A stretch of 64,000 bases of DNA from Phycisphaeraceae bacterium (GCA_020848195.1 JADLAP010000081.1:8822-72821), one strand, 5' to 3'; shown: positions 56,329 through 63,088, counted from the first letter of the stretch. Program-made: numbers and translations. The notes: generated from the letters alone by a model not told the origin.

Positions 56329-56979
56329 TCACACAGCCACGAGCAGATCATGTTCGGCGAACACGGAGCGGATCTGGCTGGCGGTGTCGCCGGCCGGGTC
56401 GATGCGATGCGTCTGCCATTGTCGCGCCATTGCCGCCTGGCAGTTGGGGCCGTTGTCGTCGAAGTAGAGGATCGACGAAGGCGGTACGCCGGCCGCCTGT
56501 TCAACATGGGCGAAGATCAGCGGATCGGGCTTGACCAGGCCGATCTGGAAACTGGTGAACGTGCGGTCGAACAGATGCAGGGGCAGGGCCTGGGGACCGT
56601 CGGAGGTGACCATGGCCCAGTGCATGGGGTTGGTGTTGGAGAGGCAGGCCAGGGGCACGGGTTTCGCGGCGGCAAATTGGTGGAGCAGTTCAAGGATGCC
56701 GGGATAAGGCTGATGAACCCATGCGTGCCAGACCGCCACGACCTGCTCCGGGGTGATCCGAGCCAGCGCCGCCATCGCGCGGGCGAAGGCGACATCGGTG
56801 AGCCGGCCGCGCTCGTATTGGCGGGTGATGTCCACCATGCGTCCCCACGTCTGAGGCTCTTCGACGGCGTCGGTGACGGGGACGCCGGCATCAATAGCCG
56901 CGTGACGCCAGGACGAGGCGATGCGGATCAGGACGCCGCCCAGATCGAACAACACAAGATGAACGGGTGAAGATGTCAC
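56329..56979 (-). CDS. HAD-superfamily hydrolase (subfamily IA-like)
   Basis: GTG start. Motif I LVLFDLGGVL, motif II LSNTN, motif IV-like YFDDNGPN. Confidence 0.8.
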   Translation of the reverse strand: MTSSPVHLVLFDLGGVLIRIASSWRHAAIDAGVPVTDAVEEPQTWGRMVDITRQYERGRLTDVAFARAMAALARITPEQVVAVWHAWVHQPYPGILELLHQFAAAKPVPLACLSNTNPMHWAMVTSDGPQALPLHLFDRTFTSFQIGLVKPDPLIFAHVEQAAGVPPSSILYFDDNGPNCQAAMARQWQTHRIDPAGDTASQIRSVFAEHDLLVAV

Positions 56980-57037: not shown

Positions 57038-58981
57038 TCAACTGCTGGCGCGGACCTGTTCGCGCAATTCGTTGTGTTTGGGGTTGGCCTTGTCCTCGTC
57101 CACGGTGCGTTCCATCAGCGCGCCGGTGTTGTTGTCGAGATAGATCATGCGGGTGGTGGTTTTGTTGGGCAGGCCGCCGGGCGCCGGGGCGTCGTAGTCG
57201 ATGTCCACGACGATGCCGCCGACGTTCATGTTGACGTTGGATTTGCCCTCGTTGTAGGTTTTCTCGACGACACCGCCGATGGGGTCGCCGGGCTGGACCT
57301 GGAATTCGTGGCTCTGCATCTTGCCGCCGAAGATGCAGTACACCTCGACGGTGGCGGACTTGTTCTGCTTGTTGCCCGTCGTGAGGAAGAAGTACTGTTC
57401 GGGGAAGATCTGCACCGGCTCGGTCCATTCGCTGGGTTCGGAGCTGAGGGTGAGCTTTTCGTAGAACTCGCGGCGCTGCAGGGCGGGAACCTGGGACTGG
57501 TAGAACAGCGGATCGATCACGGAGGCGATGACGCGATAGCGGATGCTCTGGCCGGGCTTGACGCTGATGTCGTGCTGCCAGATTTTGACGGTGCCGAGGT
57601 TGGGCATGTCGCGTGGCGATTCGCCGGGGGATCCGGGGCTTCCGGAGGTGTTGCCGTGAATGGGCATGACGCTGTCCGTGCCCTGTTGAACGAGACTGAC
57701 ATCGACGTCATGGATGCCCAGGAGCCTGTAGAGTTCGCTGGTGCGGCTCTGGAGCCGGGCTTCCAGGCCTGGCAGATCGAGGGGGAGTTTGGATTCGTCG
57801 ATGGCTTCCTCCGCGGCTGGCGCGCCCCGGCCGGCGGGCGCGGGTGTCGCGGGATTGCCGGGCGACGCAGGCGTGCCTGACGTGCCGGGGGAACCGGGGG
57901 AGCCGGGGGTTCCGGGGGAGGCGGGGCCGGACGTCCGGGTCCGCGTCGGCGTCACGATCGCGGGCCGCTCGCCGGCACCATCCTTGCGAAGCTGTTTGAT
58001 CTGCTCCTGGAACTTGCGGATGTCGTTGACGAGGGCTTGCAGTTTTTCCGCGTCACCGGGCGCCATCAGCGCGGGATTGGCCTCCGGGGGCAGCCAGATG
58101 CCCTGGTCGAGCGAGGGGAACGGAGGCCGGGCCAGACGCACGCGCTCGGCCCGCGCCGTCTCCAGCGCGGCCTTGGCTTCCGGCGGCGCCCACTTCTCCA
58201 CCGGACGACGGTAATTGACCGACAGCTTCGGCAGGAACTCGATCTCCTCGTTGCCCGGCACCGGAGGCACCGTCTCGATCGGCCCCCACTGCCCCGTCGC
58301 CGGATCCTTCACCTGTCGCTGGAGCACCACGTCCGCCACCAGCAGCACATTGCGCCACCAAGGCTCTGGAATCTGCTGACGATTGGCTTCCGGCGGCTTG
58401 GCCACCAGGCGGGTGCGCCACGTGTTGAGATCGAATTCCGCGCTGACGCTGATCCACTGGAAGTCGCGCGGCTTCTGGTCGCCGATGATCGCCTCGAATG
58501 ACCGCAGCCGCATCGGGTCCGGCGGATCCGTCAGCACCCCGAAGCCGATGCCCGTTTTGAGCGCGATGGGCGCCGGGGGCATCGGTACGAAATACGGATT
58601 GCGTTCCAGAGGCTCGGCGATCTGGAATTCCCTGGCGTTGAGGCCCGGCAGGCCCATGATGGCGGTGAACGCCGGCACGGGAAGAACGTGGCGGCTGTAC
58701 CGGGTCCAGAACTCGTTGGTGTACGGCGGCACGGTCAGCGTCATGCCCTTGAACGGCGACGGCGCGCTGTCGGAAATCTTCCGGCTCAGAGTCTCCGCTT
58801 CCTTGAGGATCAGCCGTTCCACGTCATCCGGCTGCACCGTGTCCTTGCGCGGGCCGAAGGTGACGGCGTACGGATTGGACAGGGCATAAAACCAGAGCAC
58901 GAAAAGGGCGAACACGGCGGCGATGCCGAGCACCACTTTCTCGACGTATTTCTCGAAGAGGTTGACGTTCTTCAGTTGCAT
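57038..58981 (-). CDS. bitopic membrane protein, possible greatly expanded PilP-like component
   Basis: N-terminal TM VVLGIAAVFALFVLWFYAL. SPGTPGSPGSPGTSGTP linker. The C-terminal beta-rich region with VQPGDPIGGVV is reminiscent of PilP. Third gene of the pilM-led operon. Confidence 0.65.
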   Translation of the reverse strand: MQLKNVNLFEKYVEKVVLGIAAVFALFVLWFYALSNPYAVTFGPRKDTVQPDDVERLILKEAETLSRKISDSAPSPFKGMTLTVPPYTNEFWTRYSRHVLPVPAFTAIMGLPGLNAREFQIAEPLERNPYFVPMPPAPIALKTGIGFGVLTDPPDPMRLRSFEAIIGDQKPRDFQWISVSAEFDLNTWRTRLVAKPPEANRQQIPEPWWRNVLLVADVVLQRQVKDPATGQWGPIETVPPVPGNEEIEFLPKLSVNYRRPVEKWAPPEAKAALETARAERVRLARPPFPSLDQGIWLPPEANPALMAPGDAEKLQALVNDIRKFQEQIKQLRKDGAGERPAIVTPTRTRTSGPASPGTPGSPGSPGTSGTPASPGNPATPAPAGRGAPAAEEAIDESKLPLDLPGLEARLQSRTSELYRLLGIHDVDVSLVQQGTDSVMPIHGNTSGSPGSPGESPRDMPNLGTVKIWQHDISVKPGQSIRYRVIASVIDPLFYQSQVPALQRREFYEKLTLSSEPSEWTEPVQIFPEQYFFLTTGNKQNKSATVEVYCIFGGKMQSHEFQVQPGDPIGGVVEKTYNEGKSNVNMNVGGIVVDIDYDAPAPGGLPNKTTTRMIYLDNNTGALMERTVDEDKANPKHNELREQVRASS

Positions 58982-59080
58982 GCCGTCGGCCTTTCCGGGC
59001 GTCGGGTGGATTCGGGCTTGCGGGCGCGTCGACCGTGGGACAAGCCCCGGCGCATCCTGGCCGCACGCGCAAGGTCAGGG

Positions 59081-60409
59081 TCATTCGCGCTGGGCATTGT
59101 CCTTTTGCTCCGGTTTCCTGGTGACAATGCCCAACTGTTTCTGCACGCCCTCCGGCATCAGCTTCGCGGTCCATTCCCGAAGCCAGAGCGTTTCAATGAG
59201 GATGCTGGCCTGAACGATGTCGCCGTGGCCGTAGAGGTAGCCCTTGGCGAGGTCTTCGTATTCATCGACGTCGGACAGCTTCACCTCGAGCACGGTCATG
59301 AAGTTGATTTTGGACAGTTGCTCGAAGAAGTCGGGCAACTGCTGGTAATCGACGTAGCAGTGGACGCGGACGTGCCGGACGTCGTAGATGGTGTTGCTCT
59401 TGCGTCCGGTGGGCGCGGCGGTGAAGTCGTCCGGGAGTTTCTTTTCGCCGCTGTTGTTGAGCGACCGGCCGGCGGTGTTGAAGCCGCCGCTGGAGGTGAT
59501 GCCGACGTAGCCGGGGTCCGGTTCGATCCGGATCAGACGTTTGATCGGCGCGTCGAGGACGCTGTGCTGCTTGTCGGAGACGTTGTTGGTGTCCTGAAGG
59601 GTCTGGACGATGTCCTGCTGAACCCAGAGTTCCATCTGGCCTTCCCAGACGGTTTCGATGGGGGGCTGACCGCCGGAGGCGATGGTGGCGGTCCATCCGC
59701 CCGTGAAGAACGGATATTCCGCCTGGCCGGAGTCTTTCTGGGCGTAGATGTGTATCTGCGAGGCATGCGTCTGCAGGGTCGCCAGCATCGCCGCGCGACG
59801 CCGCTGCGCCAGCTCGGCCTTCTGCTCGCCGCTCAACTGCGACTCGTCCTTGCGCGGAAAGATGGTGCTCAGGTAATCGCTGGTGGCGCCATCGATCGCC
59901 TGAGCGAGTTTCTCCTGCGGCAGCGGGCCGCCGGCGTTCAGACGCGGATACCACGCGTTGGCTGTGTAGTACAGGAACATCTCCGCCAGCGCCTTGGTGT
60001 ATTCGTCGCGGGCATTGGTCAGAAGCCAGGTCTGGTTGCCCGGCGAGGGAAACAGGTTGGGCACGAGCACGTTGTGTCGATCGTGGTTCCATTGCACCGC
60101 CCGGTCGAAAATCCTCCGATACTCGTCGTTCATCGCGTGGTAGATGGATTCGAGATCGGTGATGGCGGCCTTGTTGACGGCGATCTTCTCGCGGCGCGCC
60201 TGCTGGTCCAGATTCGCCGACGGCAGCGTCACGTCCGTCGCGCCCAGACGCTGAATCTGGTCGACCACGGAGTTGCGGTCCTGCACCCGCTTCACGAACG
60301 CGCTGCCCTGGGCGTGAACGACAAACAAGGAAACCAGGGAACCGACGCACAGGAAGACGGCGACGACGGCGATCGGATTGGCCTTGATCCAGTGGAGGGC
60401 AAGTTTCAC
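59081..60409 (-). CDS. bitopic membrane protein, possible expanded PilO-like component
   Basis: GTG start with GTGA overlap onto the upstream stop. N-terminal TM IAVVAVFLCVGSLVSLFVV. The C-terminal VRVHCYVDYQQLPDFFEQLSKINFMTVLEVKL resembles the PilO ferredoxin-like core. Confidence 0.65.
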   Translation of the reverse strand: MKLALHWIKANPIAVVAVFLCVGSLVSLFVVHAQGSAFVKRVQDRNSVVDQIQRLGATDVTLPSANLDQQARREKIAVNKAAITDLESIYHAMNDEYRRIFDRAVQWNHDRHNVLVPNLFPSPGNQTWLLTNARDEYTKALAEMFLYYTANAWYPRLNAGGPLPQEKLAQAIDGATSDYLSTIFPRKDESQLSGEQKAELAQRRRAAMLATLQTHASQIHIYAQKDSGQAEYPFFTGGWTATIASGGQPPIETVWEGQMELWVQQDIVQTLQDTNNVSDKQHSVLDAPIKRLIRIEPDPGYVGITSSGGFNTAGRSLNNSGEKKLPDDFTAAPTGRKSNTIYDVRHVRVHCYVDYQQLPDFFEQLSKINFMTVLEVKLSDVDEYEDLAKGYLYGHGDIVQASILIETLWLREWTAKLMPEGVQKQLGIVTRKPEQKDNAQRE

Positions 60410-62700
60410 GATCGGCTCTCCTTCCCGGCCTCAGGCGTCGGTGTCGGTGTCGGCACCGGTGTCGGCGTCAGGACTGGCGTCGGCGCCGGCGTCACGCGAT
60501 CTCCGACGCTTCCCGCGGGACGTTCCTCTTCCTTCTTGCGTGCTTCTTCCGGCGAAATGATCTGAATGGTCCAGGTGACGACGAACTGCCAGTCGTTGCC
60601 GGCGTTTTCGTCCGCCAGGGGCCGGGAGGGCAGGATCGATTTCCAGGACTCGGCGCTGAGCGTGGGCGTGGCCGATCCGCCGTCGCCTTCCGGTCTTTCC
60701 ACCAGATTGGCAGGCACATTCAGCGCCGCGGGCCTGCGGCCGGTCTGCTGGCCGCCAATTCTGGGTATCGGCGCCGACACCGGCGCGGGCGTCGCCGCGG
60801 GAGTCGATCGGGAACCGCTGCTCAGGTGCGGCGCGACGACGTATTTCACGCTGTCCGGCATCACGCGATACGGACGATCCGTCCGGTTTTCGCTTTCCTT
60901 GGCCCATTCGTGCAGATGTTTGAGTACGAATTCCGGGCCGTTCTTGTACGACGTGGTGCCTTCCAGCGTGATCTCGAACGTCGGCATCGGCTTGGAGCCG
61001 TCCGGATTGGTCTGCGGCTCCTGCGGCTGCGATTCCATGCCCGGCTGCATACCCGGTTGCATGCCCGGCTGCATCCCCGGCATGCCGGGCATTCCCGGCG
61101 GCATACCCGGCATTCCGCCCGGTCCGCCTTCGCCGCCGCCCATGATTTCCTCCAGCGACATGCCGCGCATCGGCATGCCCGAGGATCGCGCCGAGCCGCC
61201 GCTGCTGCGCGCCGAGCCGTACTTGTACACCGTCGTGAATTTGTCCACGACGATGCGCTTACGCTCGTTGCGGGGAATCTTGGCGATCGCCTCGTAGTCG
61301 CCGCTCATCAGGCCCGGCTGCGGACCGTAGGATGCGAACGCCATATCCAGGTCGGCGATCAGCTTCGGCCAGACGTCGCGGTAGTCGAGGATGCGGCGGA
61401 GGTTTTCAATCTGCTGACGCGGGTCGGCGGAGGTTTCAATGCTCGTCCAGTTGTTGATGAGCTGTTGAGCGCGACTGATGGTTTCCTGGATGCGCGGCTT
61501 GGCCTGCTCGAAGCTCGATTCATACGAATGCTTGGCGGTCCACAACTTCATGGCGGCAGCGCCGGACGCGGTGACCATCAGCGCCGCCGCCGCGCCCATC
61601 CACGGCTGCTTCGCGCGCCAGAACCGCCGACGCAGCGTCTCATACGGCAGTATGTTCGCGCTGACCTTCTCCAGGCTCAGTCCCTGCAGCGCCAGGCCGT
61701 AAGCGGTGGCCATGTTCAGCGCGTGTTCCGCGAACTCCGTTTCCTGTTTGCCGTCCATCTCCACCTGCGCGAAGCTGTCCAGCCGCTGCACGTCGATCTG
61801 CAACTGCTGCTTGAGGAACTTCGCCATGCCCGGCAGACGGAACGTCGAACCCACGCCCACGAGCTTGGTCAGCTTCGCGTCGCGGTTGAGCGATTGATAG
61901 AAGCCCAGCGAGCGCTGCATTTCCTGCACGAGATCGGCAAACACCGGTCTCATCGCCTGGAAAATCTGCCTCGCATATTTGCTCGTGCCTGCTTCCCGCT
62001 TGAGCTTCTCCGCCTTGGGGAAACTCAGCTTGAACGCGCGGATCAAGGCGTCGGTGAAGTTGTTCCCGCCGATCGGCAGCGTGCGAAGCCAGAGATGGCC
62101 CTGCTCCACGATGATCACGTCCGTGCTCGTGGAGCCGATGTCCATGACGATCACGCCCGGCGCTTCAGGCCCAAGCTCCATGTCGTGCACCAGCGCGTTG
62201 TACACCGCCAGGGGCGAGAGCGTCAGGCCGTGCACCGTCAGGCCCACCGCGTTGTAGTTCTCCAGATAGTCCGTCACGCGGTCCTTGGTGATGGCGAAGA
62301 TGCCGACTTCCACGTCCGGGTTGTCCGGCTCCTGAAAAACCTGATAGTCCCATTCCACCTGCTCAATGGGAAACGGAATCTGCTGCACCGCCTCGAAGCG
62401 CACAATGTCGGGAATCCGCTTGGGATCCACCGGCGGCAGCTTGGCGAAACGGGCAAAAGCCATGTGACCCGGCACGGAAACGACCACGGAACTGCGGCCC
62501 ACGGAATGGCGCGAAAGGAACTGGTCCAGATTGACCTGGATCGCTTCGTTGACGTTGAGATCGGGCGTGGTCAGGATTTTCTTGAACGGCAGAACGTCGT
62601 AGTCCGCCAGCGTGATCGTCTCGCCCTTCTTCACGAGGCGAATGGCTTTGATCGCATTGGCGCCGACCTCGATTCCCCAGCAGTCGTTCTTTTTGGGCAT
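60406..62700 (-). CDS. PilM (actin-like ATPase) fused to a PilN-like transmembrane/coiled-coil region and a long low-complexity periplasmic extension (GspL-like topology)
   Basis: Track ORF 60406..62706 (TTG); ATG at 62700. WGIEVGANAIKAIRL..., VIVMDIGSTSTDVIIV, LPIGGNNFTDAL, LVGVGSTFRLPGMAKFLKQQL. TM segment MGAAAALMVTASGAAAM. PGM/QPGM and TP repeats. Confidence 0.8.
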   Translation of the reverse strand: MPKKNDCWGIEVGANAIKAIRLVKKGETITLADYDVLPFKKILTTPDLNVNEAIQVNLDQFLSRHSVGRSSVVVSVPGHMAFARFAKLPPVDPKRIPDIVRFEAVQQIPFPIEQVEWDYQVFQEPDNPDVEVGIFAITKDRVTDYLENYNAVGLTVHGLTLSPLAVYNALVHDMELGPEAPGVIVMDIGSTSTDVIIVEQGHLWLRTLPIGGNNFTDALIRAFKLSFPKAEKLKREAGTSKYARQIFQAMRPVFADLVQEMQRSLGFYQSLNRDAKLTKLVGVGSTFRLPGMAKFLKQQLQIDVQRLDSFAQVEMDGKQETEFAEHALNMATAYGLALQGLSLEKVSANILPYETLRRRFWRAKQPWMGAAAALMVTASGAAAMKLWTAKHSYESSFEQAKPRIQETISRAQQLINNWTSIETSADPRQQIENLRRILDYRDVWPKLIADLDMAFASYGPQPGLMSGDYEAIAKIPRNERKRIVVDKFTTVYKYGSARSSGGSARSSGMPMRGMSLEEIMGGGEGGPGGMPGMPPGMPGMPGMQPGMQPGMQPGMESQPQEPQTNPDGSKPMPTFEITLEGTTSYKNGPEFVLKHLHEWAKESENRTDRPYRVMPDSVKYVVAPHLSSGSRSTPAATPAPVSAPIPRIGGQQTGRRPAALNVPANLVERPEGDGGSATPTLSAESWKSILPSRPLADENAGNDWQFVVTWTIQIISPEEARKKEEERPAGSVGDRVTPAPTPVLTPTPVPTPTPTPEAGKESRS
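61036..61128 (-). repeat. in-frame tandem micro-repeats encoding (M/Q)PG(M) units
   Basis: The plus strand reads CATGCCCGGCTG CATACCCGGTTG CATGCCCGGCTG CATCCCCGG CATGCCGGG CATTCCCGGCGG CATACCCGG CATTCC..., giving GMPGMPPGMPGMPGMQPGMQPGMQPGM. Confidence 0.7.
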
Positions 62701-63088
62701 GTTCAATTTCCTGGGCCGGTCGAGGACGTTGCAACTACTTCATGCGAAGACACTGAACCCCCGCGAGGCCCCGACAGCCGCGTCACCAACCCACCACCTC
62801 CGGCGGCTGCCTGTTCGACGCCAAGCGCCTCAGGAGCCGGACTTGCCGCCACCGGGCATGTCGTTTGCCATGGAAACGCCATCTGCCTCTCAAATCATTA
62901 AACTCCACCTACTTCCATCGGTCAAGATGACAGTTCGTTCCCTGGAGTCCCGTTGCGGGATTCCCGCTTCAATTGCAGCCGGTCGCCATCCTCAGTAATG
63001 TGGCCAAGCTGTTGTAAACCGCGTGCGGAGACCTGCCGTCTTCCCTGGATCCCTCACCAGCCCCCCCTCTCGACGAGTGCCCCCCAAC

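Follow-up and report, generated by a model that had tools for sequence, protein, structure and literature searches.

A PilM-PilN fusion gene and two enlarged partner genes as a candidate envelope-spanning scaffold in Planctomycetota

The locus and its three genes

The stretch of DNA analyzed here, referred to as the window, comprises 64,000 nucleotides from a metagenome-assembled genome (MAG) of a Phycisphaeraceae bacterium (GCA_020848195.1 JADLAP010000081.1:8822-72821; G000:C109:8822-72821 in our numbering) with a size of 3.77 Mb in 404 contigs, a completeness of 84% and a contamination of 5.9%. Judging from the names of its homologues, the genome belongs to the class Phycisphaerae of the Planctomycetota. 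Between positions 57038 and 62700, three intact, co-directional open reading frames (ORFs) are located on the minus strand (Table 1), in agreement with the original prediction of an expanded PilM/N-PilO-PilP-like operon made from the sequence of the window. We consider it probable that this trio encodes the inner-membrane and periplasmic alignment scaffold of an envelope-spanning machine that resembles type IV filament systems and is of the type of the Planctomycetes-Verrucomicrobia-Chlamydiae (PVC) superphylum, with counterparts in Amuc_1101, Amuc_1100 and, by position, Amuc_1099 of Akkermansia muciniphila. A base of the Amuc type is indicated because gene 1 scores higher with Amuc_1101_fam than with any other named family, because PilO and Amuc_1100 are the top fold matches of gene 2, and because of the synteny with a secretin gene in related genomes.

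The longest ORF of gene 1 covers 766 codons from a TTG at 62706 (60406-62706), and residue numbers of gene 1 refer to this frame. Alignment of the family sets the start at the ATG at 62700, which yields 764 aa as predicted. Genes 1 and 2 share an overlap of 4 nt (GTGA, 60406-60409), which was also part of the prediction and which recurs in 46 of the 50 related loci with both genes called, indicating that translational coupling of the two genes is conserved. The spacing between genes 2 and 3 is 99 nt, compared to a median of 75 nt in relatives. All three genes show a coding-type pattern with a GC content of 0.83–0.85 at third codon positions (GC3) versus 0.39–0.46 at second codon positions (GC2). 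Pairwise BLASTP gave no indication of paralogy between genes 1 and 2 or genes 2 and 3, and where the all-versus-all clustering grouped these first two genes together, this probably originated from a few read-through ORF calls of 1138–1179 codons. Likewise, no cross-match was obtained by hhalign among the cropped profiles of the gene 1 periplasmic part, the gene 2 C-terminal domain and the N- and C-terminal domains of gene 3.

Table 1. Positions of the trio, its domains, the adjacent hydrolase gene and the candidate secretin gene (window coordinates unless a contig is given).
Feature	Position	Strand	Description and basis
Gene 1	60406..62700	minus	PilM-PilN fusion, 764 aa; ORF listing and homologue alignment
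PilM actin-like (ASKHA) domain, cytoplasmic	61678..62694	minus	Gene 1 residues 5-343; phmmer to PilM structures
PilN-type N-terminal motif VSANILPY	61642..61665	minus	Gene 1 residues 348-355; aligned to 5EOU
Ala-rich membrane segment	61534..61602	minus	Gene 1 residues ~369-391; Kyte-Doolittle
Periplasmic region, ~375 residues	60409..61533	minus	Gene 1; conserved blocks and variable loops in family alignment
Gene 2	59081..60409	minus	442 aa, GTG start; bitopic, PilO/Amuc_1100-like C-terminal core
PilO-like beta-alpha core	59159..59545	minus	Gene 2 residues ~289-417; DSSP on AlphaFold2 model
Gene 3	57038..58981	minus	647 aa, ATG start; bitopic, unannotated family
C-terminal beta domain	57104..57592	minus	Gene 3; most conserved motif of the family, W468-x-H470-D471 ... 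PGxxYRYR
HAD-IA hydrolase	56329-56979	minus	Pfam PF00702, 1e-12; 58 nt downstream of gene 3
Orphan TPR-secretin	C275:881-4225		Secretin domain; 1114 aa, TPR-rich N-terminus, stands alone

Sequence features and predicted folds

Judged by its sequence, gene 1 is a true PilM-PilN fusion. The predicted PilM domain was recovered with the Pfam model PilM_2 (PF11104; 1.3e-37, 129.9 bits, cut-off 27) as well as the PilM model TIGR01175 (175.7 bits, cut-off 133), and phmmer matched it to the solved PilM structures 3JC8 (3.6e-28), 2YCH and 5EOX. Among 46 homologues, the motifs for phosphate (and adenosine) binding, G11/G15/K20, D189-x-G191 and G284/G286, vary hardly or not at all. Directly after the PilM domain, the peptide VSANILPY aligns with ARINLLPW, which is the PilN peptide in the engineered chimera of PilM and PilN (5EOU), with ANILP of gene 1 falling on INLLP of PilN, and N351 and P354 of this motif are nearly invariant in the family. 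The membrane segment has a Kyte-Doolittle value of 1.35 (median of the equivalent segment in 41 homologues 1.78, range 1.32–2.08) and is preceded by a conserved block formed by R361/W363/K366/P368/W369. The PilM domain would reside at the cytoplasmic face of the inner membrane, held by its own fused PilN segment, and the ANILP motif probably fills the PilM groove in cis.

In the periplasmic part of gene 1, five conserved blocks (DPRQxIENLRR, IPRxxRRR, PPxFxIT, DRPYRI and GDxxFEIxW) are connected by loops of highly variable length and composition with GM, PGM and GMG repeats. The block pattern suggests a helix-strand-strand arrangement that occurs twice, as in the fold of PilN, PilO and the periplasmic part of GspL. 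The PilN-like part of the original prediction stands for the N-terminal motif and the membrane segment, whereas for the periplasmic fold the block pattern is the only indication: the PilN hidden Markov model (HMM) PF05137 had no match at E<=1 in any of 46 family members, a comparison with the canonical PilN of the same genome by hhalign was negative, and a Pfam scan of all members of the gene 1 alignment returned only PilM, FtsA and MreB. The low-complexity tracts were found as predicted, namely two copies of GSARSSG, PGM/QPGM repeats (61036-61117 in Tandem Repeats Finder) and TP repeats (60425-60493); such long and variable linkers may act as spacers across the wide planctomycete periplasm.

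The succession of PilM domain, PilN motif and membrane segment also bears out the predicted GspL-like topology, although the T2SSL/GspL model PF05134 reached only 11.4 bits with gene 1 (E 0.21), below its cut-off of 25.5. The best-scoring named family was NCBIfam Amuc_1101_fam (NF045709; 232.5 bits, E 1.2e-68), and this match aligns residues 10-459 with positions 8-463 of the 608 in the model and thus extends beyond PilM into the membrane-proximal part.

Gene 2 encodes a protein with a single, strong hydrophobic segment at the N-terminus (residues 11-33). In the AlphaFold2 model, which was based on an alignment of 46 homologues (pLDDT, the predicted local distance difference test, 88.4; pTM, the predicted template modelling score, 0.78), the membrane helix extends as a long helix and is followed by a helical insert of ~230 aa and a C-terminal beta-alpha core with strands at residues 289-297, 342-354, 371-380 and 398-410 and helices at 355-368 and 383-388 according to DSSP. 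Foldseek against the PDB returned PilO from Pseudomonas aeruginosa as top match (2RJZ; 8.8e-4, probability 1.00, root-mean-square deviation 2.3–3.3 Å, 74 columns), besides Amuc_1100 from Akkermansia (6LAD 2.6e-3; 6LAD, 6LAF and 6KNY spanning 2.6e-3 to 3.5e-2) and Myxococcus PilO (3JC8_Oa, 4.2e-3). From the model, we infer that the 74 PilO-aligned columns correspond to residues ~289-417. A PilO-like C-terminal portion had been predicted, and in the structural model gene 2 appears PilO/Amuc_1100-like, by fold only. Sequence and profile searches of the PDB with gene 2 yielded nothing but low-complexity or coiled-coil noise. Homologues of gene 2 (n=79) with a taxonomic name were all from Phycisphaerae or unclassified Planctomycetota MAGs, and none of the 79 carried a functional name. 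Together with the periplasmic domain of gene 1, the PilO-like core may form a ring.

Gene 3 likewise has a single, strong hydrophobic segment near the N-terminus (residues 13-34). Its AlphaFold2 model has a pLDDT of 81.5, with more than 90 in the structured domains, and comprises the membrane helix (13-34), an alpha/beta domain (139-300), a long helix (308-336) and an all-beta domain (464-626) in addition to two disordered linkers rich in P, G and S. The family alignment contains invariant columns at D471, Y482, P491, W519, F532 and G565. In a profile search of 1.84 billion protein representatives, 3512 cluster representatives were found at E<=1e-3 and 1580 at E<=1e-30, so that at 50% identity this family alone comprises no fewer than 3500 representatives. 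Like gene 3, gene 2 defines a large protein family for which neither Pfam nor NCBIfam has a model. Both proteins are two to three times larger than usual (442 and 647 aa), as had been noted from the sequence. The further assumption that gene 3 is PilP-like gained no support: no Pfam HMM matched any of 40 family members, sequence and profile searches of the PDB returned only low-complexity or coiled-coil noise, PilP and GspC structures were absent among the 50 best Foldseek matches, Foldseek against viral structures gave nothing significant, and hhalign of the N- and C-terminal domain profiles with the genome's own protein at the PilP position was negative. The protein is anchored by a membrane helix and has no lipobox. 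Gene 3 is an equivalent of Amuc_1099 by position only and might occupy the place of PilP or GspC, bridging the periplasmic ring to an outer-membrane secretin.

Conservation of the trio and a candidate secretin

The order gene 1-gene 2-gene 3 was present in all 80 related loci that were fetched. Over residues 1-470 of gene 1, the 120 best-scoring homologues showed 62–78% identity, and those with a taxonomic name were all from Phycisphaerae or unclassified Planctomycetota MAGs; all entries listed by the word-indexed homologue search with gene 1 were planctomycete proteins. Identity of the same region was 56–64% to three genomes of the same family and 30–46% across the phylum. With these residues as query, an ORF of fusion length (580–840 aa) was detected in 240 of 301 Planctomycetota genomes, usually as a single copy, while some families have no detectable fusion gene (f9, 0/8). 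The profile of gene 2 identified relatives in 330 species genomes; among the 301 genomes, it matched in 17/17 genomes from six families of the same class and weakly in one family of another class. In that other class, a trio in the same order is flanked by mnmA, thiE and pheT, and the beta domain of gene 3 matched the third gene of this trio (L126) with 97% probability in hhalign. Because of this conservation across the phylum and between classes, the trio is no decayed copy but an ancient, phylum-wide module.

The genome also contains a canonical pilM-N-O-P-pilB operon on contig C376; as its possible refutation, the original prediction had named a canonical, pilQ-containing operon elsewhere that would show the trio to be a degenerate, non-expressed duplicate. 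Such a non-functional duplicate would be in line with the canonical operon elsewhere and with the lack of any HMM match for genes 2 and 3. Since the ORFs are intact, their GC3 is of the coding type, the overlap is conserved, gene 1 shows the identities given above and there are thousands of family members, we consider this explanation hardly credible.

No flanking gene is common to more than ~15 of the 80 loci, and the recurrent ones have housekeeping functions (pdxA, plsX, a CNNM/CorC transporter, an SSF symporter and rseP). In another reading, gene 1 might be a membrane-tethered actin homologue related to FtsA and PilM that functions with two periplasmic partners in division or envelope tethering in a phylum without FtsZ. 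A Pfam FtsA match above threshold (46 bits versus 31.8), housekeeping neighbors such as mnmA, thiE, pheT, plsX, pdxA and rseP, and the near-universal single-copy distribution would fit this possibility, but PilM models score far ahead of FtsA (175.7 bits for TIGR01175 versus 40.5 for FtsA TIGR01174), and the PilN motif, the PilO-like fold of gene 2 and the direct adjacency to a secretin gene in at least 27 genomes all indicate a secretin-based machine, which makes a role in division very improbable.

A secretin gene next to the trio was found neither in the window nor in most of the 80 related loci, and genes for a T2SSE ATPase, a T2SSF platform protein or a pilin do not adjoin the trio here either. 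The absence of a secretin, ATPase or pilin gene nearby, as stated in the original prediction, holds across the class and is not an assembly artefact. Contig C109 ends ~900 nt past the window. In five complete genomes of relatives, the nearest secretin domain is encoded ~0.5 Mb from the trio. The MAG contains at least four genes with a secretin domain, one of which is the orphan TPR-secretin on contig C275. Neither of the two large secretins of the genome is specifically Amuc_1098-like (50–59 bits, cut-off 750). As a side observation, the secretin region of this protein (L004) is interrupted by a run of nine asparagines and by low-complexity inserts rich in G and S. Three complete genomes of the class each encode a single full-length ortholog of it without conserved neighbors, and in the five complete relatives C275-type secretin genes are more than 1 Mb away from the trio.

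To compare positions, residues 273-1114 of the C275 secretin were searched in the same 301 genomes, and the coordinates were related to those of the gene 1 homologues; the following counts refer to 59 genomes with both matches listed and are lower bounds. A secretin was encoded within 15 kb of the gene 1 homologue in 31 of the 59 genomes. In 27 of them, all from other planctomycete lineages, the PilM match was followed on the same strand by a C275-type secretin gene at a distance of 2.2–5.4 kb, a spacing that can accommodate two genes besides the remainder of gene 1. Within the class, the trio is preceded by a C275-type secretin gene of the same orientation in four loci, with 3.5–4.6 kb between the secretin end and the gene 1 start. 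Two genomes from the order of this MAG likewise have it upstream, with 7–8 kb from its start to the start of the PilM match and a gap of 3.3–4 kb. Separately, four loci encode proteins of ~370–440 aa 3.5–6.6 kb upstream of the trio (L024:1-1107, L041:2886-4064, L049:1024-2340 and L055:1672-2889) that resemble only residues ~565-677 of the C275 secretin, an N-domain, and are not full secretins.

In two loci with downstream secretins, the gene order was derived from ORF lists, as gene calling by GC3 yields false antisense ORFs where the GC content is high. Here, four co-directional genes encode proteins of 641, 332, 354 and 885 aa (L139) and of 760, 300, ~586 and 1010 aa (L135). In both, the second gene, a shorter equivalent of gene 2 by position, has Amuc_1100_fam (NF038287) as top NCBIfam match (E 0.003), and the fourth gene matches Amuc_1098_fam among other secretin models. 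In a further genome (G247, L137:3160-4953), the gene right after the fusion encodes a beta domain of the gene 3 type (hhalign 91%) and is followed by a gene for a 356-aa protein and then by the secretin gene. Thus, the order or the fusion state of the middle genes differs between lineages.

The simplest reading of these arrangements is an ancestral operon encoding the PilM-PilN fusion, a PilO-like protein, a third protein and a secretin in the order of Akkermansia, which was split in Phycisphaerae, where genes 2 and 3 became enlarged. The secretin of the trio in this genome is most likely the orphan on C275, as suggested by gene order in related genomes. The absence of a secretin noted in the original prediction therefore applies to the surroundings of the trio but probably not to the machine as a whole.

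Comparison with known machines and possible functions

In its composition, the trio resembles the 'type IV pili-like' Amuc_1098-1102 cluster (MUL2) of A. muciniphila, whose proteins define the families Amuc_1101_fam (NF045709), Amuc_1100_fam (NF038287) and Amuc_1098_fam (NF042912). Both contain a PilM-like protein extended by a membrane segment and a periplasmic part, a bitopic protein with PilO-like fold and a further bitopic protein, and in many planctomycetes the secretin gene is next in the same order as in Amuc_1101-1100-1099-1098. In contrast to the Akkermansia cluster, the score of gene 1 is far below the family cut-off (232 versus 650 bits), the proteins encoded by genes 2 and 3 are much larger and do not match Amuc_1100_fam, no pilin-like gene of the Amuc_1102 type is present upstream, and the secretin gene of Phycisphaerae is unlinked.

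With the PilM-PilN-PilO-PilP/PilQ machinery of type IVa pili in Pseudomonas, Myxococcus and Thermus, the trio shares the PilM fold with its nucleotide-binding motifs and a motif of the INLLP type followed by one membrane segment. In addition, gene 2 has a core that resembles PilO by fold, and the position of PilP is taken by another bitopic or anchored protein. It differs in that PilM and PilN form one polypeptide, the HMMs for PilN, PilO and PilP remain unmatched, large helical and low-complexity insertions are present, and pilQ, pilB/T, pilC and pilin genes do not adjoin the trio while a separate canonical operon exists in the genome. PilP of type IVa pili is a lipoprotein of the inner membrane and contacts the N0 domain of PilQ through a small beta-sandwich, whereas the product of gene 3 is no lipoprotein and showed no PilP fold. 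The type II secretion system (T2SS) offers a parallel in GspL, which also unites an actin-like domain in the cytoplasm with a membrane helix and a periplasmic part (ferredoxin-like in GspL) in one protein; GspM is a homologue of PilO, and GspC is a bitopic linker to the secretin GspD. Unlike in the T2SS, matches to GspL models are weak, gene 1 retains the full PilM fold, and there are no genes for GspE, GspF or GspG nearby. Taken together, the trio probably encodes a diverged and enlarged form of a known type of pilus base.

Several observations weigh against the proposed scaffold. With a score far below the curated cut-off, gene 1 is not an Amuc_1101 equivalog. The Foldseek E-values of gene 2 are modest (~1e-3), and the PilO structure covers only 74 columns. 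Gene 2 has no match in Pfam or, at E<=1, in NCBIfam, including Amuc_1100_fam, the Pfam scan of all members of its alignment was empty, and its C-terminal domain profile was negative against the canonical PilO of the same genome in hhalign. The sole NCBIfam match of gene 3 at E<=1 is a spurious low-complexity match to DnaX, with no match to an Amuc_1099 family, and its 50 best Foldseek matches in the PDB all have E-values of 2e-2 or weaker, the best being to antibody Fabs. At the sequence level, genes 2 and 3 are therefore not linked to PilO, PilP, Amuc_1100_fam or Amuc_1099_fam. The partnership with the C275 secretin in this genome is deduced solely from synteny in other lineages, and with at least 12 T2SSE ATPases and at least four secretins encoded in the genome the partners are ambiguous.

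If the scaffold is of the Amuc type, its physiological function might be related to the import of polymers. In Akkermansia, MUL genes for pili and periplasmic complexes are required for mucin accumulation (PMC12418764, PMC13174399). Planctomycetes actively take up dextran, and ~100 crateriform complexes per cell join their outer and inner membrane and bear dextran-binding fibers of 12 nm (PMC5394234). In view of both, an uptake role of the module would be plausible. As a refinement of the scaffold reading, we tentatively put forward, as a possibility rather than an expectation, that scaffold and TPR-secretin act like MUL2 of Akkermansia as part of polysaccharide binding and import, possibly within the crateriform structures. 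The nearest named families, which are the Amuc_1101/1100/1098 set, and the near-universal and usually single-copy occurrence of the module in the phylum are consistent with such a role, as are the requirement of MUL genes for mucin accumulation and the dextran uptake and crateriform complexes of planctomycetes. On the other hand, no gene for a carbohydrate-active enzyme or a transporter is conserved beside the module, and some families lack a detectable fusion gene.

A bolder proposal is that the fusion protein, its two oversized partners and the orphan TPR-secretin together constitute the protein complex of the planctomycete crateriform structures, and that this complex is an import machine of MUL2 ancestry occurring throughout the PVC superphylum. 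We regard this as rather unlikely. The proteins of the crateriform complexes were still unidentified in a 2017 study (PMC5394234), and the papers that could be searched contained no description of the module in Planctomycetota. If the proposal were true, it would name the complex behind these fiber-bearing 'press-stud' connections of the two membranes, which are suspected to take up entire polysaccharides actively.

Planctomycetes import large polysaccharides, and in the related Akkermansia mucin acquisition depends on a cluster that shares ancestry with the trio. The trio, near-universal and usually single-copy, and the conserved secretin gene make up a short list of candidates, with which an open question of planctomycete cell biology becomes testable.

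Alternatively, as suggested in the original prediction, the trio might be the assembly platform for the many DUF1559 pseudopilins, with its products taking the parts of GspL, GspM and GspC in a pseudopilus machine similar to a T2SS. The topology of gene 1, weak T2SSL matches in 16 of 46 gene 1 homologues (best 7e-4), ~43 DUF1559-type genes in the genome, of which two are located in the window, and several ATPase/platform gene pairs elsewhere in the genome could be explained in this way. However, neither the DUF1559-type genes nor the T2SSE ATPase genes of this genome are linked to the trio, and among the 80 loci the module has no conserved neighbor that encodes a DUF1559 protein, an ATPase or a platform protein. 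The ATPase/platform clusters on contigs C266, C60, C150 and C120 stand apart from the trio; the contig C266 also holds a secretin gene, and the ATPase on C376 has its own pilM-N-O-P genes. A pseudopilin platform is therefore improbable, and an Amuc-type scaffold remains our preferred interpretation.

Regarding the surroundings of the trio, a HAD-IA hydrolase gene follows gene 3 as predicted (Table 1). It is encoded on the same strand and no terminator-like site is present in between, so that the hydrolase may be co-transcribed with the trio here. Scans for promoters and terminators gave nothing exceeding the shuffled expectation. Upstream, the trio is adjoined by a divergent URO-D/MtaA-like gene. 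The two flanking genes are not kept in relatives, and the HAD-IA hydrolase adjoins the trio in none of 80.

Among the other pilus-type genes of the MAG, contig C321 (1-3374, L008) encodes a different PilM-PilN fusion that is cut at the 5' contig end, matches Amuc_1101_fam with 1.2e-20 and has a weak GspL match in its periplasmic part; the next gene encodes a bitopic protein of 479 aa with MORN-like repeats. A PilM fragment on the 1001-bp contig C16 (L006) has a GC content of 39%, compared to ~64% for the genome, and is probably a contamination of the bin. On the minus strand of contig C232 (1181-6097, L001), a stop-free frame of 1638 codons joins an MsbA-like ABC transporter with permease and ATPase, a signal-peptide-like stretch and a GspD-type secretin (TIGR02517, 3e-49), which reflects either the fusion of two genes or the loss of a stop codon between them.

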